A stretch of DNA of 64,000 bases from Eukaryota sp. GEM-RC1. Lineage: Eukaryota. The DNA is taken from assembly GCA_040285855.1 (NCBI GenBank), contig JAUFOQ010000006.1, positions 1,860,001 to 1,924,000 of the forward strand, written 5' to 3'. Below are positions 15,821 through 64,000 of the stretch, in pieces. The notes beneath the pieces are model-generated. The model searched no databases. It worked only from the letters and a program-made list of their open reading frames with translations, and was not told the DNA's origin. Within the stretch, counting starts at the first letter, position 1. Every line of letters begins with the position of its first letter. A program made the position numbers and the translations under genes.

Positions 15821-16429
15821 TTACTTTGTCTTAGCCTTCTTTGAAACATTTGTCCTGAAGGAATCTATAACATGACACAGGGCTAGCAGTGGATGTTTTA
15901 AAAGAATTCTAGGACCAGAGTATTTCATTACATCCCTGATACGTTCTCTCATTACAGAACGGGATCTATAACATTGAACTCTACATTGCCCACAGTTGGG
16001 CTTATTGTTACCAAACCGACACTTGTCCAACCTTAGAAATGCAAAATCCAATAAGTCTGAACAGTCTGTACAGAGAGTAGCATTAAGGAGAGACTGATGG
16101 TGTCCAAGACAGTAAATTTGGATCATTTTGGTTATAGTGAGCTTTTCCCTTAGCAGACGGTTTGACTTCCGAAACAAGGAAGGAAACGAAGTAAAATGAG
16201 CTTCTAGTGGTATCTGAACAGGATCTGTGATACCCTGATGCTCTTCAATGTCATTGTTTCGAGAAGTTTTCAAGGAAGAGGGACCTAAGGTGGTCTTGTG
16301 AGTCTTGAGGGTGTTGTATAGCACTACAACCACAACGCAGATCACAATTGGTATCAAACAGATAGCAATTAGCATCAAAGCGAAAAATGGAAGTTGCAGT
16401 TTGAGTGAATTTTGTAGATTGCTTCTCAT
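15821..16429 (-). CDS. YgbA-like (nitrous oxide-stimulated promoter family) Cys-rich protein with N-terminal TM segment
   Basis: REKLTITKMIQIYC..HH..LCTDC..L..RLDKC..KPNCGQC..CY..MRERIRDVMKYSGPRILLKHP. Confidence 0.85.
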   Translation of the reverse strand: MRSNLQNSLKLQLPFFALMLIAICLIPIVICVVVVVLYNTLKTHKTTLGPSSLKTSRNNDIEEHQGITDPVQIPLEAHFTSFPSLFRKSNRLLREKLTITKMIQIYCLGHHQSLLNATLCTDCSDLLDFAFLRLDKCRFGNNKPNCGQCRVQCYRSRSVMRERIRDVMKYSGPRILLKHPLLALCHVIDSFRTNVSKKAKTK

Positions 16430-22129: not shown

Positions 22130-22270
22130 TTGCACTACTGTGGTTCTCAACTCAAATGGATATTCCCAAAGTACACAACTTTGTTAATTTTCATTTTGAT
22201 TAGAGTATCGAAACCACAGACACTCAGTGAGCTAAACCCACTTCGCTGTGTACTGTTAAAAGTACACTAA
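22130..22270 (-). ncRNA. Candidate Fanzor omegaRNA, copy 1 (scaffold ends at 22151; putative guide starts TTGAGAACCACAGTAGT)
   Basis: Lies directly after the Fanzor stop. Four hairpins. Identity with 32330-32449 ends abruptly at ...GGGAATATCCATTTGAG. Confidence 0.75.
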
Positions 22271-24839
22271 AGTTCTTTACGAGAGACCTTCTTCTGCTTG
22301 ACTGACTTTACGCTTCTTCTTTTAGGCGAACTCATTTCTTTTGGTGGATTCTTGCATGACGTTTTGTTATGACCTTCTTGGCCACAATTTCCACATGTTG
22401 GTTTCTTACGAGTCTTTCCTGTTGAAGTTTTCAACTTTCTGGTCGCAGTCTTCTTCTTCTTCTGGTCTCTCGCCAAAGTATCCTTACCACTCTCGAGATC
22501 TGTTGTTTGAGTTTTAGATCTCTCGAGAGCGGATGGCCTACCTTGACCATTGATCGTTGCTTCAATGATGGAATAGATATTAATGGCAGAATTTAGGTCT
22601 CTATTCCAATAAGTCCCACACTCAGTATCTGAGCACTTTACCAGTCCCCAGGGTGTGGATTTAGCTTCTTCTTCCAATGACTTCTGCTTCACCTCCCACT
22701 CTGCTTCCAAAATCCCGTTGGTTTAGAGGATCTTGTTTGTTTTTGAGCAAAATTTCTCTTCTTAACTTTCTCTTCTTCCTTCTTAGCTGTCTCTTACCTT
22801 TGGGACCAAGAACCTTTAGTTCTGAAACATTTTCACATTCTACGAAAGTTGATTTTTCCTTAGCACATTTGGAACAACACTTGCTTGTTCTGTATTCATC
22901 AACAAGAAATATTTGGTATCCATATCTTCTTAACATTTTACGGATTTCCACTCCTCTAACAGTAGAGGTTTTACCCTTTCTTGTTTTACCTTTTGAGCTC
23001 CAATCCCCATAGCCAATGACAACGTCTTCTGGAGGTCCATATGTTAAATTGAAGCGTTCCAGCATGTTTTTCTCTGATTGTTGGTTATTTGAATAAATCT
23101 GGAATTTCCTTTTTCTAAACCAGTCATCTTCGTAAAAAGAACTCAAATATACGTTATATCGTTCAGCTTCTTTAATATATGTTTCAAATGTGTCGCTGAA
23201 ACACGACTTTCTTTCCCCGTTTGATACAGCATTGGAGAATTGGTTAACGACATCTCTTCCTGTTACAAGAATATTATCAGGACGAAGAACCAAAAAATCT
23301 TTAAGTTGTCTTTCAGTGACAGTTTCGTCTGGTGATTCGATAGAAAATTCTTTCAGTTTTCTATTTTCAGATTTACGATATTTTTTAGATTTCCTATCAT
23401 AAGCTCTTTCTCCCGCTGTGTAATTAAACTTCTTCCATTTGTGCTTAGCCTTTTTCTTTGATTTTTTTATCATTATTGGAATTTTTCCAATCTTGTAATT
23501 GTTTCTTTCTTTTCTTAATTCCTCCTCTTTTCTTACTTCTGATTTTTGAGGGTAATCGTTTTTTGAGTGGATTATTTTCAGAAATATCTTCTTCTTTAAG
23601 CTCATCGACTGTCTTTTCTGAAACACAATACATTAAATCATATTCATTGGGATCGACACCGACAATTCTTTTTTTCTTTCAATTGTAATTCGTGAATATT
23701 CTCATTTGATAAAGAGTGAATGTATCTTTCCGAAGTTCCGAGAGATTTAGCAGTAAAATCTTTGAAAGTATTTCCATCTTCATCAACCAAATCTTTCCTC
23801 ATTAAAACCAAACAACAAGAAATTCCATCTGTCAGAATTGAAGAATATCTGAAGACAAATGATTTTGTTGGTGCCACAGCTTTGTCAGTAAGGACCTGAT
23901 CAAAGACCTTTTTTCTTATTTCATCTGCATTTTTGCCACGTATATGAACAAATCTATCATTCATCCAACCTGTGTCCAAACGAATATGCTGAGGAATCAA
24001 TGTCTTCGTCATTGGAAAAGGGTTGTTTACACTGATTGGTTTTCCATCAACCAAACACAAAGATTGTATTGTTCGGTTGATGTACAGAGCATGAGAAATT
24101 AACTCTGTCGGCTTTGCTTTCTGTAAATAGTAAATGTTCTTTTTTGAAAACATTGGAAACAAAGAAAATTTTAAATACGCAAAAAACCTCAACGTTAGTT
24201 CTTCACGTTGATTAGGGAAAATCTCGTGATCTTCAATTGGAATGTCATCAAAATTTCCATTGATAATCGAATCTCTGACTGAATTCAATTTCGAAATCAA
24301 TTTTTTCTTACTAACTTGATCATTGATTTGTTCAAGTCTGACCGTCTTTCTTGTTACCAGATTAAAGAATCTGAAAACATAATCATGAAAATTTTTGACC
24401 ATATTGTTGGCATAATTTGTAGAAATTTGTTTGGCAGTGTAATGAAATATGGAAGACATTGACGTTGAGTCAGGAAAAGATATTTGATTGGATCCAATTT
24501 CAGTAGATAACTGCTGTAGCAGTGGAGAAAAGTTGTTCAAGTAGGGAAATGCAATTTTTTCTTTTCGTTCATTTCTAGGCTTGAAGATTTTTGGAAATCG
24601 TCAATCACTTTTTGAGCCTCTGCTCTTGACATTTCTAGTTCTGACTCTGTAATTGAAGAACCAGTTGATTTCTTCACATACATCCGTCTCAATACTTGTC
24701 TAATAGAATCGTGTTTAAGCAGTTTTTTCAAATCTGGTAAGACTACGGAAAACTTAGTGTAGAGGGGTAAATCAGAAGGTTCTAACGGATCAGAAACAGA
24801 TGCATCATCAGAATCAGGCATTGTATCATGGCTCTTCAT
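22267..24839 (-). CDS. Fanzor1 (eukaryotic TnpB-like RuvC RNA-guided endonuclease), about 855 aa from ATG 24839, four homopolymer frameshifts, C-terminal CCHC knuckle
   Basis: FPMTKTLIPQHIRLDT; ILTDGISCCLV; RuvC-I RIVGVDPNEYDLMYC (D at 23652-23654, across a frameshift); VVIGYGDWS; RuvC-II LVDEYRTSKCCSKC; WGLVKC..C..WNRDLNSAINI RuvC-III; GRPSALER. Confidence 0.92.
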
Positions 24840-24891
24840 TAATTTACGTTCATTTAATGCCAACAAATCAGAAAGTTCAGATGGATACGAA

Positions 24892-25639
24892 CAGGAGTTG
24901 GAAAAATTGCATTGCCAATTAATTGTTCTCAGTTTTTCAGAGGCAATGAATTATTGCAATTATCACATGTGCTACAATTAATTGTTTTGTGATAAAGTGA
25001 CCATTTGCACTTAAAAGAAAGTTCAAAAGTTTGTTCTTTATGATAACAAAACTAGTCTTCAGTGTACAATCAGTGTTGACCAACGTCTTGCAGGATATTG
25101 TGCGCTTAATACAGGAAAATTACCTATTGAGTTCGTTTTCCACAAAGTTGAACGGTCTGAGGCCTTTAATAACCCACTTCATCCATTTAAAGTATTCTGA
25201 GTATTTGTCTTCAATTACAAATGTGTCAAGGGTGCTCATTTGCCTTTCATCAAGTCATTGTGCTCCGGTTGAAGGTTAACATGCTTTGTTCTCAGATGGT
25301 TGGAAAGGTTTGTTCACACGTTACCTTTCAATATCATTGCTTTGCACTTACAAGTGTAGTGTTGCCCTTTGACATGAGCACTTTTTCCAGAATCGGACGG
25401 AGAAAAAAAAGTCAAGCACAGAGTACGATTGTCTGTAGGTAAAGGAAGCAAAGTGTTTTATTGTATATCTGCATTCCGTTATCTGTTTGTAATTTCGATT
25501 CATTTCGTGCATTTGAAACCCCCGTGATAATTGCAATTAATTGCCCAATTAATTGTCGTCCTATTTTGGGGGCCAATTACTTATTGCAATTAATTAATTG
25601 GCAATAATTTAATTGGCAATGCAATTTTTCCAACTCCTG
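24892..25639. mobile_element. hAT-type MITE (748 bp) inserted in the exonuclease-Fanzor linker
   Basis: 30-bp perfect TIRs CAGGAGTTGGAAAAATTGCATTGCCAATTA; 8-bp TSD GATACGAA (24884-24891, 25640-25647); CAATTAATTG subterminal repeats. Confidence 0.92.
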
Positions 25640-26950
25640 GATACGAATCAAAATCATATTCATTCACTAACTCCATTTCACGTAGTCGTTCCTCAAAAAA
25701 ATCATGTTCATTCATTAACTCCATTTCACGAAGTCGTTTCTCAAAAAAATCATGTTCATACATTAAATCTCGTTCTTTTGATTCCGAAACAGAAGATTCT
25801 AGGAGATATGGACGAAAGTAATGAGGATTCATCAAATTTAATTCACATCCACGTGTTTCAAACTCACACATAAGGAGATGTTTCAAAAATTTGAACCCCT
25901 TACTGTTGCTCTTTGATTTCGGATAACACAGTCTTTAATTAAGACAATATTATCCTGATCTTTAATAACTTTCTCCAGTCCCTTTTTCACCACTTTAATT
26001 GGATGGCGCTCTAGAACATGTTGAGTTTCTTCATCAAAGAAATATTCATGTAATTCAGATAAACAGTCAATTCGTTGAAGTAAATCTTCAACCAGAGTAA
26101 TTACTTTTGCATTATCAGTCCACAATTTGAAGGTTTGCTTGTTGTGTGCGAGTAGGTTAAACTCTTTCTCTATTTCCTTGTTAACGGTTATGCCTGGTAC
26201 TTTTCGAAATTCTGTGAAGTACGTAGTTAATTCTAATGACGACAAAATTAAATTCGGTACGTGTCTACGAAACAACTTTGAACAAACATTTTCCAAACTT
26301 CTACCACCTTTGAAGACATAAGTAGACTTTGTAACATTTGCCAAGTCCAGAGAAACAAAAGGTCCAAAATTGCAAAGCTTACACCATCTATGAAACCAGT
26401 TGGGTACGTAGGGTCTGTATGGATTATCTAAATGAAAATTGGTCTGAATCTTGAACATTTCACACCGTTTAATCAAAAAGGAAACAACAGTTCATCAGTG
26501 TTATAACCAATCAAGAATCTGGGTTTTGTTTGATATAAAACTTGGATAAGTTCCCCAATCATGGCCTCTTTTGAAGCACAAACAATTATTTCGACATTTT
26601 CAAATGTATTGTTTATGTTCTTTTACTAAAAATAACAGTTGAAGTGAAATTAGCATAGATAAATTTGAGACTGATAAAGATTATTTTGTCTTCTTTATCC
26701 AAAGGATTTGCAAACAGTTCTGCTCTCGATGCTTCAACTTCTTCTTTGATTTTAGGTATATCAGCATCCTCTGGTTCCTCAGAGTCATCTTCAATATCAT
26801 CAGAGTCGACACTTTTTTTAGGCAATACAGTTTTAGGTGATTTGAGAATTCTTGGATTAAGTCGTTTTGCATCAGTAATCATGGTTTTAAAATCAATTAA
26901 ACAAAATGTTGGGATTTCTTCTGTTTCTGTTAATTCTGATAGATTCGATT
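25640..26950 (-). CDS. Degenerate family-B DNA polymerase 3'-5' exonuclease-like domain; N-terminal part of the Fanzor reading frame (three homopolymer frameshifts)
   Basis: ExoI-like IPTFCLIDFKT; FANPLDKEDKIIFISL; EIIVCASKEAMIGELIQVLYQTKPRFLIGYNTDELLFPFLIKRC (ExoII-like); FVSLDL..RSLENVCSKLF. Joins SYP-SELSDLLALNERKLM in frame once the MITE is removed. Confidence 0.65.
25655..25760 (-). repeat. 48-bp tandem duplication encoding EHDFFE(K/E)RLREMEL(M/V)N linker
   Basis: Two-plus copies visible in the DNA and in the translation. Confidence 0.8.
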
Positions 26951-27559
26951 TCTTGAGAAAAAAACAACAGTTACTACTTTGCCTAAATTGAGACCAAATC
27001 TATTGTCTCGAAATACTCTCAAACCAAATTCGAATTTACCTAGTTTGAAATTATCAAAAAAAGTTACAGATCATGTGGACACTGAATCTGTCAACAGATT
27101 ACCAAATTCTCTTGGTATTCAGACAGATTTTGAAAAAACTTGAACAATACTCATAATATTGCAATGGAGACAGAAACAAAGGTTCTCACAATTGTCCACG
27201 ATATTGTACCACTGTACTGGAACCAAAATGATACAACATCAGACTGTCAATTACATATGAGTTTGAAACTTGAGTTGTTAAAAGATTTAAATTTATTGAT
27301 GGCCAAAATTTTGAATTTTCATTTAAATGATAGGGACAAGTACTTTAATGAGTATTGTTGTGGGATTGGTTTTAAGGAGTCGTTTTCGTTGGCTGTGATG
27401 TTTGCGAGAGTGATGGGGGGATATAGTAGTGATAGTTAAGTTTGATAAACTGAGGTTGTATATTTTATTGGTTGTGTTTAACGACATTATATATAGAAGA
27501 CAAAATTATGAGCAACCACAATTCAATACACATACGACACGTTGATTGAGATTGATTCT

Positions 27560-27722
27560 CACCAAATGTTGTATCACCAAATGTTGTCATTACAAATGTT
27601 GTATCACCAAATGTTGTCATTACAAATGTTGTAGTTACAAATGTTGTCATTACAAATGTTGTAGTTACAAATGTTGTAGTTACAAATGTTGTAAAACACA
27701 TCTTGTATTACACATCTTGTGA
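27560..27722. repeat. Tandem array of 13-15 nt units (ACAAATGTTGTAGTT / CACATCTTGTATTA)
   Basis: Directly visible; an inverted counterpart lies at 28718-28797. Confidence 0.9.
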
Positions 27723-28178
27723 CAACTAAAAGACAATAGATAGTGATAATAGACTGGCATATATGGCTTAACTTTATGAACAAAAGAAAAACATAATGAA
27801 TCAAGATTTCCAAGTCAACATATGCTTTCAGCTTGTGACGGTCAGAGTGAGAAGAAGAAAGATTATCATAAGAAGGAGAATATGCGCTGTTTATCCAGCG
27901 AGAGATCGTACTTTGCGAGACAATGAAGAAAGAAAGATGGGTCGTCCCCATCCAGAGAGATATGACCAAAGAGCCCTCACTTTGGTGTCTTCCGAAGCGT
28001 GGACAGACATGCTCGTTAAGTCGAGTCTTGAGTCCCAGAGCATCTCAAAAGTGTATCCCATAAGTAAAAAGAGTTTGTGGGAATTGGGTGTGTGGGGGAA
28101 TTGGTAAAATGGGGATATTCACCCAAAATGAAAACTGCACTAGCACTAAACAAAGATTTGCCTTAGGGAATTTCATTT

Positions 28179-28515
28179 TTTTTGTGTTTCAACCTTTTGC
28201 TGTTTCTCTTTTTGGATTTATTAGTCCTGCTGGAGATCAATTTTTCAAGGATTTCGAAGAATTGTGTAAAGAAAAGAAGCGCAAGTTTAGAATGGCTGAA
28301 TGGAAAAACCGTATAGTGTTTTCCAATATCGGAATATGCCTTTCTATTTCTCTAGATTAATTGAGAAATTGTACAAGTTTGGTGTGAAGGTTAATGTTGA
28401 TAAACGTAATCTTTTACCGGGTGGTGATGAAGTCGTTTGGATTTAATCTTACAGTAGTATTATTTGTTTGTTTTTACAATTTCATAGTTTTGTAGACCTT
28501 ATTGGGTGCCGAATA
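28179..28515 (+). mobile_element. Family A CRE-like 3' fragment
   Basis: FVFQPFAVSLFG...GDEVVWI* and 3' UTR ending GGGTGCCGAATA. Confidence 0.8.
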
Positions 28516-28798
28516 CTGTTTTCTCTCTTTTTGGATGGATCTCTAGATATCCACATTTTCTCAAATTCACCATACACCCTCTTTCCCCAAACTTTTTCTC
28601 TCAATGGGTTACAGCTTTGAGATGCTTTGAAATACAAATTTGGATCTTTCTAGCATGTCAGTACATGCTTCAGAGGATACAAATGTCAGCAGTATGGTCG
28701 TACCGGAGAGAAGTGTCAGAATACAACATTAGTAATACAAGATTTGTAACACAACATTTGTAATACAAGATGTGTAATACATGGTGTGTAATACAAGG

Positions 28799-29700
28799 TT
28801 ACCTATATTTTCCTATATTTTTCAAAATTAAATACAATTCAAATAAAACACACATACCAGTTTTTTCATCATTTTTCAAATACTCTTTCAAAACATGAAA
28901 CAATTCCACAGGTCTTTCGATTTCGTTCAAGTGTTCGATAGCGAACTTTGACTGACTGATTCTTTTTGGTTCTGCTTCAGTGTTGAACCGAACATCAACA
29001 TATGTATCTGAAAAATTAACAATAACTCTAACTCCTTTTGAACCACTAACTAGTCCAAGTTCAGGCTTGTTTTGAGTGTACATCACTTGTCCACCAACAA
29101 CACAGTCAAGTTTTTTTTCAGCAAAGTCATCTAAACGTTTGGTCAGCACAGAAGTTTCAATGTCATAATATTTCTATAAATTAGATTCTACAACTGGAAA
29201 TCTAAAACTTCTTTTGCTAATTTGAGATTTTAATTCAGATTCATTGAATTTGTTAACAGCTACAAATTCAATTGAATCTGAATTTTTAAGCAAGAATTTT
29301 GAATTGTTTTAAATTATCTTTAGCAACATCAATACTGTATTCCTTCCGTACAAAATAGTTGGGTTTTCAACAGAGGGTGCTGCTGTACCAAAATGATTAT
29401 TCAGAATTGATTTCATAAAATTATCTAACAGATCCAATCTCAATTGATTTAGAAAATTAAAAAATTGCGAATCTGATTGCTGCCGAATACTTCCAGCCAG
29501 TTCACAATAATTGAATTTTAAATTGTTCCAAGCACTTGATGAAAAAGTGAAATCAGAAATTACCACTTTTCGATTTCCTTTACCATCAAGACTTTTAAAA
29601 ACAGGGGCTAATTGAAGAAAGTCTCCGAAACAAATTACCTGTATTCCTCCAAATGGTTTCTTCGGAGAGTGGCATTTTGGCGTGTCATTCGTGAGATTGA
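28799..29700 (-). pseudogene. PIF1-family helicase remnant
   Basis: KPFGGIQVICFGDFLQLAPV; FSSSAW..ELAGSIRQQSD..FLNQLR; VNKFNE; VGGQVMYTQN..LGLVSGSKG. Walker A/B and C-terminal motifs not seen. Confidence 0.8.
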
Positions 29701-30543
29701 TGTTGTGTATAGTGGTTGGTGCCATTGAGTTGATGGATTGTTTGAGCGCAGGGAAACTTGGTCTTCATCAAATTTCTCTTTCACTTCACACCATGACTTT
29801 ATCCAGTGGTATTTCAATCGATCAGACAATTTCATTTCAAATGGATAATCTCACATATCTACACTTGATCCACATCGAACTGTTTTCTGCTTAATTCACA
29901 CCCATCCCTTGATATCCTACATCTGCAGTTCACGACTTCAAATTCTTTCTTATTGACTACGTCAACATAAGTCCGCTATTTCGTACGATTCATTTTCTAT
30001 ATCACACCAGTATGATGGAGGATGTGTTTGTATGTGTATTTGTATCATATCTGACTTCTTTCTTGAATCGTAAATCTCGTTTTAGCATCACTGACTTTTT
30101 GTTTATATATCAAATCTCAATTTAAAACAAGTAAGATAATCACACGGATTACTCAGCGACATTACTCAGAGAATGAAGAAGAAGAATCAAGTAACTCAAG
30201 CAATGAGTTAGAGTCAGATTCTACTGGAACAACTGAGATTACTTCGACTCCACTCCCTCCTCTTAAGTCTCTTGTCAAAAAATCCAATTTTACGAAGAAT
30301 CCTTTTGGACTTTAGATTCCTATAAAGCATAGTAATAAACAAGACTGACCTGTAATATTTGTCATTGATCACAGTTTGAAGGAGTCAGGAGAGTCAAGGA
30401 TTATGAGTTTGGGCACATAACTACATAGACACTAGAACGAACAGACAGTCAGAAGCCATTTTGTTGTGAAAAGTCTGTCGGAAAGAACAATCAGGAAGAA
30501 ATGTTGTGAGATATCTACATGAAGATACAATTCTTTCGTTTAC

Positions 30544-32327
30544 ATGGATCCTTTCATCGTAACAACCGCGGACTCTGCTCCTCAAGACCAAGGCAGTGTT
30601 GTCCAAAGTTCTTTATACTCTGTTTCCTCCGCTGTCGTCGCTACTGCGGACTCTGCTCCTCAAGACCAAGGCAGTGTTGTCCAAAGTTTTTTATACTCTG
30701 TTTCCTCCGCTGTCGTCGCTACTGCGGACTCTGCTCCTCAAGACCAAGGCAGTGTTGTCCAAAGTGGTTTACGTTATGTTTCCTCCGCTGTCGTCTCTGC
30801 TATAACAATCCATCAGAAGAATCGTTGGTGTCATGATCTTACTAATGACGGTGATGTTGAAGCCAACCCTGGGCCACCAGATGAGTTTGTCCATATCCAC
30901 AAACTGTATCATGGGTCATGTGCTACAATCCCACATGACACGATCCTTCATCCCGTTAAAAAGATCAAAGGATTTTTTGTCTGTACTTGTTTAGAACATC
31001 ATCGACAACATCCAAGCAACCGCACTTCATCTGGATTAAATTCATTGAAAGATATACCCGCTTATACGACGTTAAAAGCTGAATCATATCTGTATCAAAT
31101 TCAACGTTATTTCGGTGCTCATCTGGGACAAATGAGCTTTGACAAACATTTCATACCCTATTTTATTGCTACAGAATCAGCCCTGGATCCTCTACAGAAG
31201 GACAAATTCTTTGCTGATTTTATCCAATATCACCAAGCTATTCTAGATAGTCAAGACACAATTTCTCTCCCTATCATGCCCGCTCCTAGTTTGTCTACAC
31301 CTGCGTCAGATTGTCAAAGTTATGAAATATGTAACTACTGCATGCTTCCCGGCCACAAAAGTACTATCAAAGGTGAACCCCTATGTTGTCTTCGTAGTCG
31401 ACCCCTTTCATACCAAAATTTCACTCGAGTTGTTAATTATTTCTCTTGTTATATACCGTCTACAATGTTGGCATACGCCTTAACTGTCTGTCATAAATAC
31501 ATTTTGACGGAACCACATTTGAAAGAAGTAAAAATGTTTCCTGTTCCAGGTAATACTGGAAAAAATGTACAATAACAGAAATAACTAATTTCACCTTCGA
31601 CTTAGTTTCCCATGTCAGCACTGTTGCAGAAACTCTCGATGACTTGTATTTTTCAGCTCTACTGAACGAAATTCGTCACTATGCTAGGTGCAACGGTTTA
31701 GTTTCCGAACAGACTTCCATTGAATCTGAAAATGGTGATGACTTTAATAGCGATTACTTAGATATGGACAAAAGAATTGATAATTTTGCTTTTAGTTTGG
31801 AAAGTGTCGATCAAAATCTTCATTCAACATGGATTTTTCGTTCCCTGTACCGCTTTGTTGTCTTTGCCAAAATCTATGTTGAGTCAGATTCGGATGTCCA
31901 AACAGAATATAGAAAAAGTCATTTGGATTCTCTGTATTTGTTCATTTTTATGCTAGGATATCAAAGTTATATTATCTCTCAAGATTCATCTGAAATTTAT
32001 GAGTTTTCAAATTTAATTAAATTCCCCTTTGACTTCTTTAAGTCTATGTTCAATGAAAAAGACGACGAATTCACTATTTTAGAGGCTATCGATAATGCTT
32101 TAAGATACAAGAGAAAAACAAAACCACAAAGTGTTGTTCAATTGGACCAAGTGATAGTACCACAAGTTTCATCTCTTATGGAAGAAGATCTTATGGAAGA
32201 AGTATGTATGTCATGTGGCCAAGAAGGTCATAACAAAACGTCATGCAAGAATCCACCCAAAAAAATGAGTTCGCCTAAAAGAAGAAGCGTAATGTCAGTC
32301 AAGCAGCAGAAGGTCTCTCGTGAATAA
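30544..32327 (+). CDS. About 595-aa polyprotein-like ORF: 26-aa repeats, 2A-like peptide, unknown domain, CCHC knuckle shared with the Fanzor (one A-run frameshift at about 31563)
   Basis: Adding one A to GGAAAAAAT joins the two ORFs (GKKCTITEITNFTFDL..DDLYFSALL). Contains DLTNDGDVEANPGP and terminal CMSCGQEGHNKTSC. Confidence 0.7.
30565..30795 (+). repeat. Three tandem 78-bp coding repeats (TADSAPQDQGSVVQS..VSSAVV)
   Basis: GCGGACTCTGCTCC recurs at 30568, 30646, 30724. Confidence 0.95.
30826..30876 (+). other. 2A-like ribosomal skipping (StopGo) peptide
   Basis: WCHDLTNDGDVEANPG|P matches the GD(V/I)ExNPGP consensus. Confidence 0.85.
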
Positions 32328-32329
32328 CT

Positions 32330-32470
32330 ATAGTGTACTCTTAACGGTACACAGCGCAGTGGGCTTAGCTCACTGGGTGTCTGTGGTTACGATACTCTAA
32401 GCAAAATGAAAATTAATAAAGTTGTGTACTTTGGGAATATCCATTTGAGCATTAGAAATGTGTTACAATA
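32330..32470 (+). ncRNA. Candidate omegaRNA, copy 2 (scaffold ends at 32449; putative guide starts CATTAGAAATGTGTTAC)
   Basis: Same hairpins as copy 1, with stem substitutions that preserve pairing. Confidence 0.7.
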
Positions 32471-36451: not shown

Positions 36452-36579
36452 CTCTGAAGTTCTGAGCATTCACTGTGTTTTGATTTACGTTTATTGGTGA
36501 GAGGCATGTACAAAAGAATTCTGCACCGTCTTTTAGTAGTACAAAATACAATTAAGTAAAAAAATGATTTTTTTAATGG

Positions 36580-36962
36580 CTGAAATTCAAAAGGTTTCAA
36601 TCACCGAGAAACAGCTGAAAAACGTAAAACTTATTTGGCTTCCAAAGATGTTGCCAAACTCAATCAAAATTTGTATTTGTTCCATTTGCTATTTCTATTT
36701 TTGGTTGTATTGATGAAATGGCTTCTCAGTTTTTAACTGATTTTGGATCTATGTCTAAGTCTCAGAATTAGAGATTTAAGTTATCAATTTGGCATAACCG
36801 TTTGATTTTTTCTTTTTCCGTTCGATGCCTGAGTCTTTTAAATCAACTTTCACAAAGTTGTATAAAAACTGTGGTACTGTTGACCAGGAATTTTCTGTGT
36901 CTAGTGTTTTGTAGTTTTTATTATGATATGTATTGTTGTACCCTCCATCATTAAACTGTTTC
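36580..36962 (+). mobile_element. Family B CRE-like 3' fragment
   Basis: Homologous to 555-836 plus 1725-1815. Confidence 0.65.
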
Positions 36963-37505
36963 AGCCAAGTACAACAACTATTATATTAAGAACATCTCCC
37001 ATAACCATCATCAATTGATCAGTATTTTCCTCGGAACTTTGCTTGAAAGCTATTAACTGGGATTCAGAGATACCAACAACTAAAAAAATATCAAAGTAGT
37101 TATCAAACTATAATTTCGGATTAACTGGACAACTCCACTCTTGATGTAAGATTACATCAAAATTTAAGTCCACCATTCATTGTTTGTTGCAAAAAGAATA
37201 CGTCGAAAATTGTAAAAACTTACAGTGTTCAACACCTTGCAATCAGTGGACAGTATACTTGGGTGGAATAATTGAAAACCGCGTAATCAATGATTCAATT
37301 CTGTTTCTTCAACATTCTATACACCTGACACAGTTGTACATGACAGACTTTTTATCAAAGCTGTGATAGCCACTGATCATAAATGTCTGAACTTGCTTGA
37401 TTACAATTCGTTAAAGTTCGTTTTAGTCTTCACTTTTTGACAAGGTATGACGTCATCAATGTTCCAAAGAAAGAATTTGCTAAACGTAACACTTTCTTCC
37501 TCAAA

Positions 37506-38096
37506 ATGACTTTCGTTGGATCTCAAACAGAAAAGAACTTAATCACCTCTTTTGTTCACGAATGCTGTGCAGCACAAAGATATGAAATGTTTGCTAAGAC
37601 AGCAACAAAAGAAGGTCATGCCTATATTGGTAAGATCTTTGATGAAACTGCTGCCATGGAACGTGTTCACGCAAACCAGTTTTATACCAAACTTCAAGGT
37701 GGAGAAGTAGAAGTGCAATCTGCTTTCCCTGCTGGAATCGCCGGAAGCAAACGTGTTGGTAACACAGCCACAAATCTTCAAATGTCTATTGATGGTGAGA
37801 ACCATGAACATCAAGTGGTCTACAAAGAGGCTGCTGAGGTCGCCGAAAAGGAAGGTTTCTCTGACATCGCCACTCTCTTCTCCAACGTTGCCAAAGCTGA
37901 GGAGTTCCATGCTAAACGCTTTGCTTACTTGCTTTTGAACCTTACAAACAAAACTCTCTATCATTCAAACGATGTTGTTTATTGGATCTGTTCGAATTGT
38001 GGATTTGTTGAATGTAGTACCGATGCTCCTGCTGTTTGTCCTGCATGCGCACACCCTAAGGGATATTTTTACAGAGAAGGAGTTTCCCTTAATTAG
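37506..38096 (+). CDS. rbr: Rubrerythrin (ferritin-like di-iron domain + rubredoxin-like domain)
   Basis: SQTEKNL..E..A..RY..A..EG..F..TA..E..HA; GENHE..Y; AEEFH; WICSNCG..APAVCPACAHPKGYF. Confidence 0.93.
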   Translation: MTFVGSQTEKNLITSFVHECCAAQRYEMFAKTATKEGHAYIGKIFDETAAMERVHANQFYTKLQGGEVEVQSAFPAGIAGSKRVGNTATNLQMSIDGENHEHQVVYKEAAEVAEKEGFSDIATLFSNVAKAEEFHAKRFAYLLLNLTNKTLYHSNDVVYWICSNCGFVECSTDAPAVCPACAHPKGYFYREGVSLN

Positions 38097-46871: not shown

Positions 46872-47184
46872 CGTGGGGATACTATTTTTGTCTTGACATG
46901 TATGAAGTAAGCGATTGGCAAAACTATATAAAAAACTGTGCAACTTTCCTTCTGAAAAATATATTCAGACACTTGATTATTGGGTTGGGAGTTCGTCGTG
47001 ATGACTCTTGGTCTTGGAAACAATTGATTTAACAAAATCAGCGAAAACAATGGATGTGACACAATCCAAAAGTTAACCAAAGACCTTCACTATTAAGGGT
47101 CCTGTTTGAAACGTTTGCGTAAAAAATTTAAAAATTTTTCTAATAGTGCATTGATACAGGAAGTTAACGATGAAATAGAGAGAT

Positions 47185-47488
47185 GTTTATTCGGCACCCA
47201 ATAAGGTAACCTTTCTACAAACTATGAAATTGTAAAAACAAACAAATAATACTAAGATTAAATCCAAACGACTTCATCACCACCCGGTAAAAGATTACGT
47301 TTATCTACATGAACCTTCACACCAAACTTGTACAATTTCTCAATTAATCTAGAGAAATAGAAAGGCATATTCCGATATATGGAAAACACTATACGGTTTT
47401 TCCATTCAGCCATTCTAAACTTACGCTTCTTTTCTTTACACAATTCTTCGAAATCCTTGAAAAATTGATCACCAGCAGGACTAATAGA
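47185..47488 (-). mobile_element. Family A CRE-like 3' fragment
   Basis: Near-identical to 848-1150. Confidence 0.85.
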
Positions 47489-48255
47489 AATATATCAAAA
47501 GTCTATTTGGTACCTAATCTTAGTATTATTTGTTTGTTTTTGCAATTTCAAAGTTTTGTAGGAAGGTAACCTTATTTATTGGGTATTGAATAAAGTTTAG
47601 TATTTTTAAAATATATAAACATATTTGTAAAAGTATAAGCCCAATCCGTTGAAAGATGTCGTTTTTCAACATTAACATTCACCAACCTTGAAGAATTTCT
47701 CAGCTAAACTTATTACACTACAACTACTATATTTAAGAGTGATTGTACAATAGGTTATCCAAATCAGTTTCAATTATATATGTTTCCCAAAATATTTGAA
47801 TGATATGCTAAACAAATTTTTTCGTGGTAGCTCAAGGGTAGATGTAGATCATTTAATATCTTTTAAGTTCTACTATTAGTAGTTTGTATTTGGATAATTT
47901 ACAACATAAAACAGTTTCAATTCAGTGTACAATCATTTGTCTGTGTATTCAGGTATCAGGCTGAGGTATTCGTTTTGGGGATTATAGGTATACTCTACTT
48001 TCTGACGTGCTGTAATGGAAGGTTTGAAAAATTCAGTAGAAAATTAAATGTTTTGCAAGTTTTTAAACTAATACATTGCCCAATGATGCCAAACATTGAT
48101 TTAATCAAACAGACAAAATACGATGTCGACCGTTTCTCTCATATATGTCATATATATCAGTTAAAGGAATTTTAGAGCTCATAAAAAAATACAAATACTC
48201 TTTTCCAACAAAAAACAATACATAATATTATTTTTGAAAGTAATACTGTACTGTA

Positions 48256-48378
48256 CAGTCTTTTTCCCGGTTTATGTCCACCTCTTGGACTGGAGATAAA
48301 CCGACTTGGACATAAACCGACTTGGACATAAACCGAATTGGACATAAACCGAATTGGACATAAACCGGGGGAAGACTG
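48256..48378. mobile_element. Small mariner-type MITE with 16-bp internal tandem repeats
   Basis: TIRs CAGTCTT..CCCGGTTTATGTCCA / TGGACATAAACCGGG.GAAGACTG, TA flanks. Confidence 0.75.
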
Positions 48379-48669
48379 TATTTCGTTCTATGCCTAAATT
48401 TCTTAAATCAATCATCACAAAGTTTTGTAAGAACTGTTGTACTGTTAATCGGGAATTTTCGGTGTGTACTAGACTGAAAGCTATGAAACAGCTTTGATTA
48501 TTATATGTATTTGTGTATCCTTCATCGATTAACTTTTTTTTTGTATTTTGAGTTTTACAATGATGATTTAAGGCACAATTTTGCAATTTTACAAAAGATG
48601 AATGAAGAACCTCGATTAACCTATCAGGGCATTTAGTAGTTCATTTCAAGTGTTTAGAACCGAAAAAGC

Positions 48670-48838
48670 TTTATTCGGCACCCAATAAGGTAACATTCCT
48701 ACAAAACTATGAAATTGTAAAAACAAACAAATAAAACTAGGACTAAATCCAAACGACTTCATCACCACCCGCTAAAAGATTACGTTTATCAACATTAACC
48801 TTCAGACCAAACTTGTACAATTTCTCAATTAATCGAGA
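48670..48838 (-). mobile_element. Family A CRE-like 3' fragment
   Basis: Same 3' UTR and DEVVWI tail. Confidence 0.8.
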
Positions 48839-49195
48839 GTGTTTTATTTAGACTTACTAGTATGTTTCAAAAATAAGCAACTAACCCAATTCTGAAGCAA
48901 TTATTGTCTGTGATACTCATATTTTTTGAAAAATGTAAAAGTTTAATTGTAAAATAATACACATACTACAGTATATTTAATGATGACATCATCAAACAGA
49001 CTCAAAGAACGCTTTGCCCAAGTGTAGCGGAGAAGTTCTCAATCAAAATAAAATACAAACATACATATATAAGTGCTACATTGTTCTCCTTCAAAAACTC
49101 ACGTTTACAAGCTAAAAAGACATAAATAATAAACTTAGAAATTATGAGTATATACTTCCCACCTGACAAAAAGAAAATCATCGTTCAAAAGAAGT

Positions 49196-51408
49196 TTACC
49201 CAAATAATCGCTTAAATTCATTAGTAAAACTGTCTTCCTCAACAACACTTGTCACATCATCAGCACAAATAGAAAACAAGCAAGTCCCCGCATTAATCCT
49301 CGCCTGTAGCACCTCCAAGGCCTTGGACTGAGGTAACAAAAGAGAAAGAGCAACCAAACAAGTATACATTGGCTTCCGATCAGTCTGAGAAATCAGTCGT
49401 AGCCTAACACAAGCAAAAGAAGGAGATTCAAATAGCTGAACGAACCGGTCAAAATGCACGTGATCAGTATCAGAGAATCCTTTCTTACCATAGTACTCAA
49501 TGACAGCAAGGCAAGACGAGTAACTGCGGGAATACATTGACAATGAAAAGAAACAAAAGGGACTATGTACAAACGATGTAATTAAGCTTTGATAATCAGA
49601 AGATCCTCTGTTTTGAACTCGCAGTCGTAAATCGTGGAATCTAGAGCACGTGAATAGAGACAACAATAGACAAGGAAGTGTTTTAGTAGTGAGGTCTTTT
49701 GATTCTCGGGAAGAAACACTTGTGATCTTACCAACAATGGATAACACAATCTCACAGAAATACTGATCAGATTTGATCCCTTTGATACGTGATAAAAGGT
49801 CAAAAAGAATGAACAAACGCTTGGAGTCATGCAAGAATCCGTTAGACCTCTGGAAGCTTCTGTTACGACTACTGACTTGAATATGACTTCATCATGTTCT
49901 TGCGCTTGAGAGAAAATCAAGCAGAAAACTTCAATCACAATTGATTGAAGGTCAGAATTAGACTCAAATCGGCTACATAGAATTAAACAGCGTACAATTC
50001 TACACAGGACATTGGGTGATAGGTCGTTTTTACACGTGAACCAATGTTTTGAAATAATAAATTTCAAAATATTACAAACCAGCGAATATTTACTAAACAC
50101 AACGCTATCAACTGTTGATGACGACGACGATTGAGGTAAGAACGAGGAAAGCGTCGAGACCAAGAGCTTAAACTGAATCTTATGTGAAGGTGCATAAGTT
50201 AGAACATCGATAATATCATTGACGAGTGGCTGAACAAAATCAGATAAATCAGAAAAGATATTGGTAGAAAACAAATTAAAAACAAATGATATTATTGAGG
50301 ATAACTTGTGTAGAATAGGAGTGGTTGCGGGAGACGATCCAAACTTAACATAAACCTGAGCACAAACTGAGAACCACAGTAGACATTCATGTAAAATAGG
50401 TGTGGAAGTGGCATGAAGAGCAGAAAGTTTGGTTAGAGTGTGAATCAAATCCTCCCAATGAATGTTGTCGATTTCGCAGGAGGTGTAGGCAACAATGGAA
50501 AACTTGTCCTTTTCTACTATTCTGGATAGTGGATCCAGATCAGAAGCTACGGCGTCATCAAACTCCAAAGGGACGTCTTCATCTAAAGGGATAGAGTTGT
50601 TAACAAAAGAGCGAAGTTTGGAAAGAAAGTCTTCTGATTGGAGAGTGATTTCCTCATTGGAAAGCACGTGATCAGCGAAAGTGTAGGCAAAGACTTGGGC
50701 ATCTCTTGGGGAAGCAGGACTACCAGAAGTGTAAGGGAGAGGTTGAGAGACAAGAAGGGGGATGACTACAGAAAGCAAGATGTGGGTATATGGGAGGAGA
50801 TCAACTGAGAGACAGTCTAGAAGGAAAGATAGTAGTCGGATGGCAAGGGACTTGGGAGGTAACACGGAGAGAGACAGAGCATTGCAGATACATGGGATTA
50901 GAGGATCTAGGACTAGCATATGACCATGTGAGAGAAGGATGTCTTGGAGTAGACGTTCTAGAGACAAACAAGATGCAACGATTTCAGTACTTGGATCAGA
51001 GAATCCAGCGACTAGACTTTTAAATATGAGATGGAAAAAGGAAAGGATATGGTGAGTAAGAGCCTTACATAAGGAGTAGAGAGCTTCGAAAGACAGAAGA
51101 CGAACATGGGAATCTAGATCTAACACTCGAGAAAAAAGGGGTATAAGAATGAGTTCCAAAATGCTGGAGATGTTGACTTTGTCATCTAAGGGAAGTTTGG
51201 ACGCTACGTAACCGAGAGCAACAACAGAAGAACGACGATGAGACAGATCAGTACTCGAGGAAAACACAGAAATACTGTTAATCAAGGCAACGAAATCATT
51301 CTCTGTGAAACAAGAGGAAAGAAGATTATCCAGATATGTGACTGAGGGAGATCTCTTATCATTAGTTTTAAGAACAAGATGAGAGAGTTTTGTAATTGAC
51401 ACCTGCAT
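49196..51408 (-). CDS. VAC14: VAC14 homolog (HEAT repeats; frameshift near 49850)
   Basis: DLDSHVRLLSFEALYSLCK N-terminal motif; C-terminal FDRFVQLFESPSFACVRLRL..LLLPQSKA..LQARI. Confidence 0.85.
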
Positions 51409-56185: not shown

Positions 56186-56679
56186 TTGATTGACAGATTG
56201 TTGATTGATTTCGATTTTTTTGATCACAGTTATATTTGATGTTTTGGTCATTTTATTGGTGATATTTGGTTTTCATGAAAACCAGATTGATTGAAGAAGG
56301 CAGACCGATTTAATTATCATCATGCATTTTCTGTTTGTAACATCTAGGGTTTTTTTTATTTAAGAGGGGTTTAGTCTAGGTGGTAGTACTCGGAATACAT
56401 AAATGAAACGTGACTATATGAGCAAACCTTACTTTGGATTTACATGACGTGCATTGATTGAAGTTCCACAGTAGTTGTACTGTGAGTGGTGACGATGCAT
56501 GTTGTTCGTTAAGAAAATATAGTTTCTAGCAATTTCGTTAAAGCAAACTACACTTGAACACAATTAAAAAATACCTCGAAAGGAGGTTGCTTTTCAAGAG
56601 GTTTGAAAGGAAAGATACTGAATCTAGAGTGGTACTTTAAGTTCGTGTACATACGTTGTTTGGTTACATACATTATAAA

Positions 56680-57000
56680 CTGAATCAAATTTTTTATTCA
56701 AAATTAGTATTTTTTCCATTTGCTATTTCTATTTTTGGTAGTATTGGTGGACAGGCTTCTCAGTTTTTAACTGATTTTGGATCTATGTGTAAGTCTCAGA
56801 ATAACGGATTTAACTTATCAATTTGGCACAGCCGTTTGATTTTTTCTTTGTTTCCTTCGATGCCTAAGTTGTTTAAATCATTTTTCACAAAGTTGTATAA
56901 AAAAGTGGTACGGTACTGTTGACCAGGAATTTTCGGTGTCTAGTGTCTCATAGCTTTTTTTATGATATGTATTTTTGTACCCTCCATCAATAAACTGTTT
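56680..57000 (+). mobile_element. Family B CRE-like 3' fragment
   Basis: FFPFAISIFGSIG..FLTDF; same 3' UTR as the other family B copies. Confidence 0.7.
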
Positions 57001-58971: not shown

Positions 58972-59827
58972 TAGGGTTGTTAAAATGAGCCGAGTCAAGT
59001 CGAGTCAAGCCTACAATTTGAAGCTTGACTTGACTCATGAGTCAACCAAGCCTGACTCGTGCTGACTCATCTTGACTACCTTTGACTTGACTTGACTCAT
59101 GAGTCAACCGAGGCTGACTCGAGCTGACTCATTTTGATTACCTTTGACTTGACTTGACTTGACTCATGAGTCAACCGAGCCTGACTCGAGCTGACTCATT
59201 TTCAATGCTCTTTTCTATTGTACTTTATAACATAACACAAATCTCTACTGTTTTCTACTGATCTGAATTTAATACACCTATTCCCTACCACGAGTGTAAA
59301 CACAATAAACACCTTGCAGTATTGCAGATAGTCTAGCCCTTTCCTTTGTTACAATTTGGTTTGCAGCAGAGAACAAACGTTCAATTGCTGCTGAACTTGG
59401 CTGAATGCTTAAGTAGTCGCGAGCTGAGCAAGCTGAGCTAGGATAATCTGATTGGTAGCGTTTCCACCAATCTAGGGGATCCACCGCAGCATCGACTATG
59501 CCTGTTGATAAGTAAGCTGTCAGCTCATCCCGCACATCAACATGCAAATGAATTTATACAGAGAACTGCTACTAATTCCATGTACACGTGATTGTAATAG
59601 AATATGTTTAAATTGTATTAAATTATATTCATTAGAGTAAACTTGAGTAGAGCTGACTCACAGACAGAAACATAGGCTTGACTCGACTCATGAGTCAAAT
59701 GAGCCTGACTCGAGCTGACTTACGGACAAAGATACAGGCTTGACTCGACTCATGAGTCAAATGAGCCTGACTCGAGCTGACTGACTCAAAGCTCAGTGAG
59801 TCAGCTTGACTCAAAATTACAATCCTA
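58972..59827 (-). mobile_element. Internally deleted hAT transposon retaining the C-terminal dimerisation domain (59278-59547)
   Basis: TIRs TAGG(G/A)TTGT; 8-bp TSD TCTACAAT; GACTC/GAGTC subterminal repeats; DPLDWWK..YP..ARDYLSIQPSSAAIERLFS. Confidence 0.92.
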
Positions 59828-62009: not shown

Positions 62010-62463
62010 GTATTGTGTTTACTTGTGTTTCTCAGTTTGATTACTGCTAGCTCTATTCACTTTCTATGTGTGATCTTTTTCTATGCATGATGTGTTTTTT
62101 TGGCATTGTAGTAGTGTTGATGTTATTCGTCATTGAATAAATTGTAACAAGACTCAATGTATTACAAATCTAACAATATATGCTAACCTTATTTGCATGA
62201 CTTAATCGTTCTGTGCAATAAGTTCTGGAAATAATTGCTTCTTGAATTAGTTACACACACTTTCGATTTTGAATAGACATAATTTCAGCGTTGTCAACAA
62301 CTTCATTTGTTGACCTGTGCTAATCTACCGGGATTTAGCAAAATTAAACAAACAAACGGGAACGATATGACGATATTTTCAGGTTCAATTCTATTCCTTT
62401 GATGTTGAGAACAGATCTGTCTTCTTTAGGCGACTATTGCGTAGCGAACATGAGAGCTTTCTA

Positions 62464-64000
62464 TATTGTAGGCAAAACCGATTTGGAGGATACAGTAAGT
62501 ACTTGTATTGCTTTTTTGAAAGAGAGGCTCTTATTTTGTAAATTATCATTATCCTGAACCACAAGATATTAACCAAAGTATACGTCTTTACAAATTTGTT
62601 AATAAATTGACAAGGAGTTTGAACTCTTGGACTTTAATAATCGTATTAGCTTGGCTAAAACTAATAGTCCCGAGTTCGCTGCTTTTTAATCGATCTTTGT
62701 AATAGTGGACCTTCTGGATTTATTTCTCAAATTCCAAAGGTGTATGGATTACATCTATCTGATGAAGCTTGGATGATCAATATGCGTCTTCGTATTGTAG
62801 GCAAAACCGATTTGGAGCATACAGTAAGTACTTGTATTGCTTTTTTGAAAGAGAGGCTCTTATTTTGTAAATTATCATTATCCTGAACCACAAGATATTA
62901 ACCAAAGTATACGTCTTTACAAATTTGTTAATAAATTGACAAGGAGTTTGAACTCTTGGACTTTAATAATCGTATTAGCTTGGCTAAAACTAATAGTCCC
63001 GAGTTCGCTGCTTTTTTAATCGATCTTTGTAATAGTGGACCTTCTGGATTTATTTCTCAAATTCCAAAGGTGTATGGATTACATCTATCTGATGAAGCTT
63101 GGATGATCAATATGCGTCTTCGTATTGTAGGCAAAACCGATTTGGAGGATACAGTAAGTACTTGTATTGCTTTTTTGAAAGAGAGGCTCTTATTTTGTAA
63201 ATTATCATTATCCTGAACCACAAGATATTAACCAAAGTATACGTCTTTACAAGTTTGTTAATAAATTGACAAGGAGTTTGAACTCTTGGACTTTAATAAT
63301 CGTATTAGCTTGGCTAAAACTAATAGTCCCGAGTTCGCTGCTTTTTTAATCGATCTTTGTAATAGTGGACCTTCTGGATTTATTTCTCAAATTCCAAAGG
63401 TGTATGGATTACATCTATCTGATGAAGCTTGGATGATCAATATGCGTCTTCGTTTGGCTATTTGGCCTGCAAATTTATTAAACTATTCAACGTGCTCTTG
63501 TGGAGCTAATGGTGTTTTTCGTCATTTAATTAATTGTCGTTATTTTATTCATCTCCGTGCAGTAATTCATGATGGTGTACGTGATTCTTGTTATTCCATG
63601 TTTAAAGCACATGGTTTTCACTCTAAAGTTGAACCAGTTTTGAATCATCTTTCAGAAAATGAATTTACTGATCAAAAACGAGGGGATCTACATACTCCGT
63701 GGCTTAAATCGAGTCAAGCATTAATGGATTTTACTACAGTAGATGTATGTAACAAATCTTGTGTTAGTAGGATATTAGATTCTTCTTTTAATCCATTAAC
63801 AGCAGCTGAAAAGCTCAAACACACCAAGTATGACTCTCAAGTAGAAGAATTAAATAGAAACTCATATTCCAAATTTGTGTTTCAACCTTTTGCTGTTTCT
63901 CTTTTTGGATCTATTAGTCCTGCTGGTGATCAATTTTTCAAGGATTTCGAAGAATTGTGTAAAGAAAAGAAGCGTAAGTTTAGAATGGCTGAATGGAAAA
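62464..64000 (+). mobile_element. Family A CRE-like element with a 329-330 bp segment triplicated at its 5' end; runs off the window
   Basis: Units start at 62464, 62793, 63123; the third continues into the CCHC-RLE region matching 920-1700. Confidence 0.85.

Follow-up and report, generated by a model that had tools for sequence, protein, structure and literature searches.

Guide RNAs (omegaRNAs) at the right ends of Fanzor elements and copies that lack the protein, known as ghost loci, are already established (PMC10432273), and Fanzor1 (Fz1) copies that are truncated at the 5′ end and intact at the 3′ end are likewise known (PMC3627910). The solved Fz1 RNAs are 75–150 nt long, have a first stem-loop (SL1) of 7 bp and vary widely beyond it (PMC11423790), and Fz1 RNAs carry a terminal double-stranded stem (PMC10711439). 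A 64,000-nt stretch of Eukaryota sp. GEM-RC1 (assembly GCA_040285855.1, contig JAUFOQ010000006.1, forward-strand positions 1,860,001–1,924,000), hereafter the window, in whose numbering all coordinates are given, carries a 236-bp repeat in two copies, A and B. The original prediction, made from the letters alone, read this repeat as an omegaRNA whose scaffold, 3′ boundary and strand are defined by covariation between the copies. Our analysis suggests that the repeat is probably the 3′ end of a multi-copy Fanzor1 whose last ~116 bases encode an omegaRNA scaffold on the Fanzor-sense strand.

SpuFz1 (Spu-1) of Spizellomyces punctatus resembles this locus in its Fanzor1 core, being the best match in the PDB, in an RNA placed between stop codon and right end, and in protein-less copies of the RNA end. 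SpuFz1 belongs to a 638-aa class (633 aa in PMC3627910) and has a 75-nt scaffold and 30-nt inverted repeats at both ends, whereas the GEM-RC1 locus has a fusion protein of ~1,200 aa, a predicted scaffold of ~116 nt and no terminal inverted repeat (TIR) or target-site duplication (TSD) that was found. The orphan copy B is a 5′-truncated piece, in contrast to the end-to-end ghost of SpuFz1. GtFz1 of Guillardia theta is similar in that its RNA is longer, at 150 nt, and forms four stem-loops of which SL1 has 7 bp (PMC11423790), and its locus is reported without inverted repeats, as none were found here; its RNA overlaps 17 codons and has SL2–SL4 tertiary contacts, and was compared by description only. 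Copies of CRe-1/2/3 and MCi-2 are 3′-intact and either 5′-truncated (CRe) or 5′-variable (MCi-2), as is copy B, but have target duplications of 7–19 bp or 11–12 bp and, in CRe, Helitron2 ends (PMC3627910), as opposed to at most a 3-nt CAT here.

The widespread giant-virus and metagenomic Fanzor1 family (L002–L128; 128 loci fetched, with 99 RuvC open reading frames (ORFs) among them) is ~30% identical in RuvC/TNB and shares a DPN variant of RuvC-I. It differs in having proteins of at most 673 aa with neither exonuclease nor zinc knuckle, in its conserved ...CAAGGGTGTA end, and in that its RNA model has no match to the window. That end lies ~214 nt past the RD motif (e.g. L014:3388-3519), and the first hairpin, ~105 nt before it, shows double changes in 6/6 predicted pairs across 29 distinct ends. 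L004 and L006, which lack the CAAGGGTGTA motif, share another structured 3′ region that lies 3′ of the Fanzor stop and ends in a long-range stem.

Two copies share a single 3′ boundary

The repeat and the elements read from it are as follows.

22151..22386, minus strand: copy A of the shared end, with most of the knuckle, a basic tail, the stop codon (22269-22267) and the structured 3′ region
32214..32449, plus strand: copy B, an orphan of this end that is truncated on its 5′ side and stops earlier, at a codon of its own (32325-32327)
22151..22267, minus strand: predicted omegaRNA scaffold A, from folding prediction
32333-32449, plus strand: predicted scaffold of copy B
22136..22150, minus strand: putative guide A, the first 15 nt of flank, placed from the divergence point and SpuFz1 guides
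32450..32464, plus strand: putative guide B, placed in the same manner

The repeat analysis rests on these two copies, whose gap-free alignment of 236 nt contains 15 differences (93.6% identity). Both finish at CCATTTGAG and then diverge, the shared terminal sequence being GGGAATATCCATTTGAG; the terminal 26 nt occur twice in the window and in none of 100 shuffles. Beyond the boundary the likeness of the flanks is at random level (anchored alignment, p 0.16–0.43), and on the same test a second common boundary at +8 was rejected. The claim that both copies halt at one sequence and diverge into unrelated DNA was thus confirmed. A block 3′ of the gene with one end position and variable flank was found in both available copies (2/2), which are too few to prove the fold or the exact 3′ end. 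The exact end and the stem patterns had no match in metagenome contigs or in viral contigs, and a 17-mer search returned a single match, by chance, within an unrelated coding region.

The gene that ends at copy A is a broken Fanzor1

Upstream of the stop in copy A lies the gene to which the repeat belongs, with the features listed below.

22267..26999, minus strand: broken exonuclease–Fanzor1 gene, from tblastn of relatives and ORF lists; 5′ start not fixed
22597..23835, minus strand: Fanzor1 signatures as defined in PMC10711439 and PMC3627910
within 23835-23824, minus strand: TDG motif (ILTDGIS), WED
23654, minus strand: RuvC-I D in the sequence motif VGVDPN
22897, minus strand: alternative E in the sequence motif VDEYRTS (VDEYRTSKCC), just before the zinc finger
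22599, minus strand: RuvC-III D in the sequence motif WNRD
22487..22532, minus strand: strong hairpin in the coding region just past RuvC-III
24892..25639, no strand assigned: hAT-like non-autonomous insertion with perfect 31-bp TIRs starting CAG and an 8-bp target duplication GATACGAA

Relatives align over 26957-22509 (minus strand, tblastn), and the frame runs on as far as the stop codon (22267). All three RuvC residues are present, and the gene at copy A is a Fanzor1. All parts of the pattern D-X(125-275)-[TS][TS]-XX-C4 zinc finger-X(5-50)-RD are present in order across frame breaks, and are contiguous in the relative P0030; the C4 zinc finger contains a long insertion. RuvC-I reads DPN and not DPG, with D and P kept, and DPN was also found in 4/5 unrelated Fz1-type matches (P0003–P0007). 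In the PDB, a profile of the family and its relatives matched only SpuFz1, PpFz1 and GtFz1, all of them Fz1, at E 6e-74 to 7e-50, and P0030, a protein of strain TZLM3-RCL (RCL), matches SpuFz1 by itself at 2e-12.

About seven frame switches and one 748-bp insertion interrupt the gene, which is therefore dead as assembled (a pseudogene). We take the insertion to be hAT-like from the form of its TIRs and TSD. An explanation of all frameshifts as assembly errors was rejected, as the insertion has its own TSD and only 2/7 break contexts hold a homopolymer run (at least 6 in the central 30 nt, vs a background of 8.9%). A 48-bp in-frame tandem repeat (25650-25766) in the Fanzor REC region adjoins the insertion. 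The hairpin at 22487..22532 (z −3.1 and −3.4) is missing from copy B and is a possible 5′ extension or remnant of the RNA.

Predicted fold and strand of the post-stop region

Folding of the ~116 nt past the stop was predicted for each copy and for the two together, with the following stems in scaffold A (all minus strand, predicted).

22267-22248: SL1, 7 bp
22242-22226: SL2
22225-22203: SL3
22196-22154: long interrupted terminal stem
22254-22245/22179-22170: rival long-range stem, which excludes stems 1 and 4

The consensus model comprises three 7-bp hairpins and the long interrupted terminal stem, and recovers the four stems and the four Watson–Crick/G-U swaps that were originally named. The last named stem extends outward, beyond what had been noticed, into the interrupted hairpin 22196-22154 that ends 3 nt short of the boundary. 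In the consensus fold, the predicted scaffold length, 7-bp first stem and terminal stem all fit the solved Fz1 RNAs. Compared to shuffles, the post-stop part folds at z −2.97 and −2.57 in the two copies and the shared coding half at z +0.25 and +0.08. The minimum of a sliding-window folding scan is the window whose end is the boundary.

As both strands fold better than shuffles, the strand was chosen by the differences between the copies, with a two-copy consensus energy of −31.8 for sense vs −15.0 for antisense. When the same five transitions and three transversions were placed at random (1000 trials per base copy), an equally good sense consensus was reached in 0.3% of placements on copy A and 4.9% on copy B. 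In order to avoid circularity, the fold was also taken from one copy and the changes scored in the other. This resulted in 4 tolerated and 1 broken (p 0.018) and 4 tolerated and 2 broken (p 0.08) on the sense strand, and in 0 tolerated against 5 and 4 broken on the antisense strand. In a plain count, the four differences that are one-sided Watson–Crick/G-U swaps within stems all fall in the expected direction (4/4, p 1/16, ~0.06). That G-U tolerance works only on the Fanzor-sense strand is hence favored by the asymmetry of the one-copy test and weakened by the p of ~0.06 and by a rival fold that does equally well. The remaining differences had been placed in a stem extension, loops or linkers, and not all of them are neutral: in folds taken from single copies, one pair of the fold of A is broken in B and two of the fold of B in A. 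Together the strand and structure signals give modest, consistent support, not proof.

In the rival fold the 3′ arm of stem 1 pairs with the loop and arms of stem 4, with a further 6-bp extension, and it likewise absorbs the four differences as G-U swaps. Copy A is predicted to favor the four-hairpin fold by 3.3 kcal/mol and copy B the long-range fold by 2.7. Stems 2 and 3 alone are stable in both copies (pair probabilities 0.83–1.0), and stems 1 and 4 have an equally compatible predicted rival pairing. An Rfam scan gave 3 weak matches, each under its gathering score, and a scan for bacterial promoters and terminators, a method ill-suited to a eukaryote, found nothing.

Guides and the origin of copy B

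The guides of SpuFz1 are 14–15 nt (PMC10432273), and Fanzor1 scaffolds can include the target-site duplication (PMC10711439). At +6 to +13 the flank of copy A holds an 8-nt perfect complement to the loop region of stem 3; p is 0.04 when the whole scaffold is allowed as partner and 0.001 for this loop, which was chosen post hoc. Owing to this complement and to the TSD in Fz1 scaffolds, the guide start is less certain than was first stated; an omegaRNA with scaffold and guides meeting at the divergence point is the best reading of the site, and the guide start itself could shift. Bases 2–16 of the copy A flank (22135-22149, minus strand) match exactly over 15 nt at 50368-50382 (plus strand), antisense within a Vac14-like gene, with an empirical chance of ~0.9% for two flanks and no wider homology; this is possibly a self-target or chance.

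Copy B has two further features.

32174..32213, plus strand: junction of copy B, a 15-bp tandem duplication followed by short ATGT repeats
31554..32327, plus strand: unrelated open frame of 257 codons, of which the last ~38 are Fanzor tail

Copy B starts at the knuckle's second cysteine, and the 257-codon frame reads into it in register. No relative of the body of this frame was found among 73 candidates or among 1.84 billion representatives, where the 3 matches were all to the tail. A tail native to the B frame was rejected, as the tail-bearing relatives are Fanzor-attached and the body is without relative. Two coding variants of B recur in the family: a Met in P0031/32/34 and a stop at the same codon in P0033/35, the latter judged from protein ends. 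Copy B therefore stems from another family member, and the differences between A and B are largely standing family variation. The arrangement suggests that copy B is likely the product of one-ended copying that began at the right end and was aborted, and it would function like a ghost locus, as a guide cassette in trans, if transcribed. Just upstream of its frame lies a 343-aa frame (30544-31575, plus strand) with a 2A-type DVEANPGP (30853-30876), a 78-bp triple repeat and a CxxC-GH motif; no relative of it was found, including in the Atlas, and it has only the 2A motif in common with the RCL Fanzor P0028.

Weighing the omegaRNA against other explanations

An omegaRNA is the best reading because a Fanzor1 lies upstream, the fold ends at the divergence, and the strand asymmetry holds in the one-copy test. 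A number of results weigh against it. The antisense strand alone folds as significantly as the sense strand (z −3.78 and −2.63), and 7/150 random 120-nt windows of this DNA reach z ≤ −2.5 (4.7%). Compensatory, two-sided changes were found in 0/35 consensus pairs. This fails the claim of covariation and not the RNA, as two copies of 94% identity have almost no power. With one-sided changes only, two copies and a presumed 5′ end, the copies do not define scaffold, boundary and strand as was proposed. The rival fold is the best fold of copy B, and the 7-bp SL1 and the terminal stem fit the consensus fold only. The post-stop part is no more conserved than the coding part (8/116 bases past the stop of copy A vs 7/120 coding bases, p 0.79), and the 32 invariant bases at the terminus are within chance (p 0.12).

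The same holds for comparisons with other ends. A model of 29 viral and metagenomic Fz1 right ends has no match at A or B, having only 6 pairs and low power, with 14 matches at E 2–9. A model built from A and B, which took in unrelated flanks, was run on 70 of the 128 loci fetched and gave no match that approached significance. The distance from WNRD to the end is 458 nt vs a median of 214 (208–332; 67/97 loci with a callable end), and the second strong hairpin (22532-22487) sits inside the coding region. The flank of copy A itself is predicted to invade stem 3. The search for a left end, TIR, TSD or transposase of the element, with 59 + 30 window frames scanned, found none of these, and no target-adjacent motif (TAM) was derived because no left end was found. 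Any target duplication is at most the 3-nt CAT, and the reading of a TSD was rejected for copy A, for copy B and for a single large element. An imperfect inverted structure at 27570-28796, with 14–15-bp satellite arrays at both ends, encloses a piece of another repeat family and hides the Fanzor left end.

Part of this evidence would also fit a structured end that serves as a mobility signal or messenger RNA 3′ signal, either a rolling-circle-type DNA hairpin or an RNA stem-loop for copying in trans, with the true omegaRNA starting at 22532-22487 or lost. The excess RuvC-III distance is about the size of the shared module, and the hairpin in the coding region, the absence of likeness to other Fz1 ends, a terminal hairpin that folds as DNA on both strands too, and a PIF1-like remnant upstream on the same strand all suit such a signal. 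The extra length, however, consists of a K-rich linker, variable among copies, plus the knuckle, and the changes tolerated as G-U fall on one strand in stems 1–3, distant from the terminus. Neither a CTRR end nor an A-tail, Rep or reverse transcriptase domain was found (window frames), and mobility and omegaRNA roles are not exclusive in OMEGA elements. We consider this explanation doubtful.

Less probable again, and improbable in our estimate, is an omegaRNA with a different boundary, in which the scaffold is ~13 nt longer in A, flank +6 to +13 forming a pseudoknot with the stem-3 loop, and B is clipped at its 3′ end, or in which a TSD is part of the scaffold. The 8-nt complement at its stated significance and the TSDs known from Fz1 scaffolds speak for it, but Fz1 RNAs are without pseudoknot, the complement in B is only 5 nt, and the observation was made post hoc.

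Copies A and B are inverted and 9.8 kb apart, the DNA between them is mobile-element-like (the PIF1 remnant and a 2A-bearing frame), and the frame of B enters the knuckle in register, so that a single 10.3-kb element (22151-32449) could be supposed, with A and B as its long terminal inverted repeats and divergent genes running outward into them. Against this, no target duplication of at least 3 nt was found at offsets 0–3, the body of the B frame occurs on 0/7 tail-bearing proteins and has no relative among the 1.84 billion representatives, and the B junction has a repair-like tandem duplication; a single large element is very improbable. A neutral duplication with a chance G-U pattern is scarcely credible, for although only four changes carry the pattern (one-sided p 1/16) and 4.7% of random windows fold as well, the site lies directly behind a Fanzor1 stop, the fold ends at the boundary, and the permutation p is 0.003–0.08.

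An exonuclease-like domain and a zinc knuckle flank the Fanzor1 core

The omegaRNA candidate belongs to a protein with two additional parts.

26060..26910 (approximate), minus strand: DNA-polymerase-B-type 3′-5′ exonuclease-like domain, 48–63% identity to P0015/P0009
22354..22395, minus strand: C-terminal CCHC zinc knuckle (CxxCxxxxHxxxxC), present in P0031–P0037

The nearest named proteins are from Eukaryota sp. GEM-RC1 and TZLM3-RCL, both free-living skoliomonad metamonads (PMC11316075). Of six relatives scanned, four (P0002, P0030, P0015 and P0009) exceed the PF03104 cut-off and the other two are without the region; the two window pieces scanned gave no match to PF03104. The acidic residues that we take to be the Exo I/II/III motifs look intact in P0030, and those of P0015 and of the window look decayed. 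In the RCL Fanzor1 proteins P0002, P0025, P0028 and P0030 the DNA-polymerase-B-type exonuclease domain is intact-looking, and P0025, P0028 and P0030 are whole frames. The same knuckle tail is borne on Fanzor sequence by at least seven annotated GEM-RC1 proteins (7/7 of those found), six of which are 89–93% identical to the last piece of the gene. There are 13 members in a sister cluster (~60% identity) and 12 in the RCL cluster, 2 of the latter starting with a 2A-type DIEKNPGP. Whole frames of the family are 1,215–1,303 aa. Neither knuckle nor exonuclease was matched in any of the 99 RuvC ORFs from the 128 fetched loci, of which the complete ones do not exceed 673 aa.

Judged from sequence, a skoliomonad-related multi-copy family fuses an exonuclease-like domain in front of Fanzor1, and the GEM-RC1-type subfamily adds the C-terminal CCHC knuckle. 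Where active, the exonuclease would trim the ends left by cutting, and RNA binding would be the role of the knuckle. A single-sequence structure model of P0015 has a predicted local distance difference test score of 32.5, too low for it to be used to judge kinked REC2 helices or a bilobed fold. In a quick tree the skoliomonad proteins are on long branches, for which reason no tree placement is drawn.

Accessory DnaQ-like exonuclease domains occur in long terminal repeat elements (PMC6338049), and DEDDh exonucleases in P and piggyBac are cited in PMC3627910. These are likewise borne by mobile elements, but neither paper describes them as part of a fusion with an RNA-guided nuclease, and the domain here is of the PF03104 type. 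A literature search, mostly of open-access papers, found no publication naming both Fanzor and metamonad, and, judged by title or abstract start, no natural fusion among papers on Fanzor with exonuclease, on Fanzor with 2A or on TnpB fusions; the supplement tables of the surveys (PMC10432273, PMC10530073, PMC10711439) could list such fusions. The available parts of PMC10530073 and PMC13565253 do not mention "exonuclease", and that of PMC13434818 holds nothing further on architecture. The exonuclease fusion and the knuckle thus appear to be without earlier description in the literature searched, while omegaRNA and ghost copies are already known.

Genomic setting

The window is eukaryotic DNA with a GC content of 37%, and its genes include PGK, an mRNA-capping gene, Vac14, rubrerythrin and DM10. 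Bacterial-type genes stand among the eukaryotic ones, namely a YgbA-like gene (15821-16429, minus strand) and the rubrerythrin gene (37437-38096, plus strand), which suits an anaerobic protist. On the strand of the Fanzor gene and 1.8 kb upstream of it lies the broken PIF1-like helicase remnant (28799-29764, minus strand; PF05970, E 7.5e-10). Transposase sequence is represented solely by what is left of a hAT dimerisation domain (59281-59553, E 3.6e-15) amid short repeats of subterminal type (58986-59782). A dispersed repeat family occurs in both orientations at 533-2080, 28181-28495, 36568-36961, 47183-48967, 56602-57000 and 62354-64000, includes a 330-bp tandem array (62354-63453), and had no Pfam match in the frames scanned.

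Possible mechanism and meaning

Fz1 biology as described in PMC10432273, PMC11423790 and PMC13565253 suggests how such a locus could operate. Transcription through the right end would yield the scaffold followed by ~15 bases of flanking DNA as guide. Protein from an intact copy elsewhere would bind the RNA from the copy A region, and the ribonucleoprotein would cut the empty allele, in which DNA that matches the guide is flanked by a TAM. Repair from the filled copy would then copy the element back, and copy B may have been seeded by aborted one-ended copying that started at the right end. A wider scheme, which we regard as unlikely in its entirety, is that natural nuclease–exonuclease fusions without a transposase of their own spread by right-end cut-and-copy repair that often aborts. 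Orphan cassettes would retarget the nuclease, the scaffold would switch between two folds, the exonuclease would be active in RCL, decayed here and placed behind 2A in some proteins, and the knuckle would bind RNA.

The RNA, if it is as predicted, is one further Fanzor1 guide scaffold, and its value is mainly as a candidate scaffold for a family that is so far undescribed in metamonads. Of more consequence is the protein. An exonuclease has reportedly been engineered onto a compact editor, as in TREX2-Cas9, and here an exonuclease fusion seems to be a natural product of evolution in a multi-copy family. A cultured relative has whole frames whose motifs look intact (P0025, P0028 and P0030), and these would allow study of how end processing affects repair after a Fanzor cut, a question that bears on what Fanzors do for their elements in eukaryotes.

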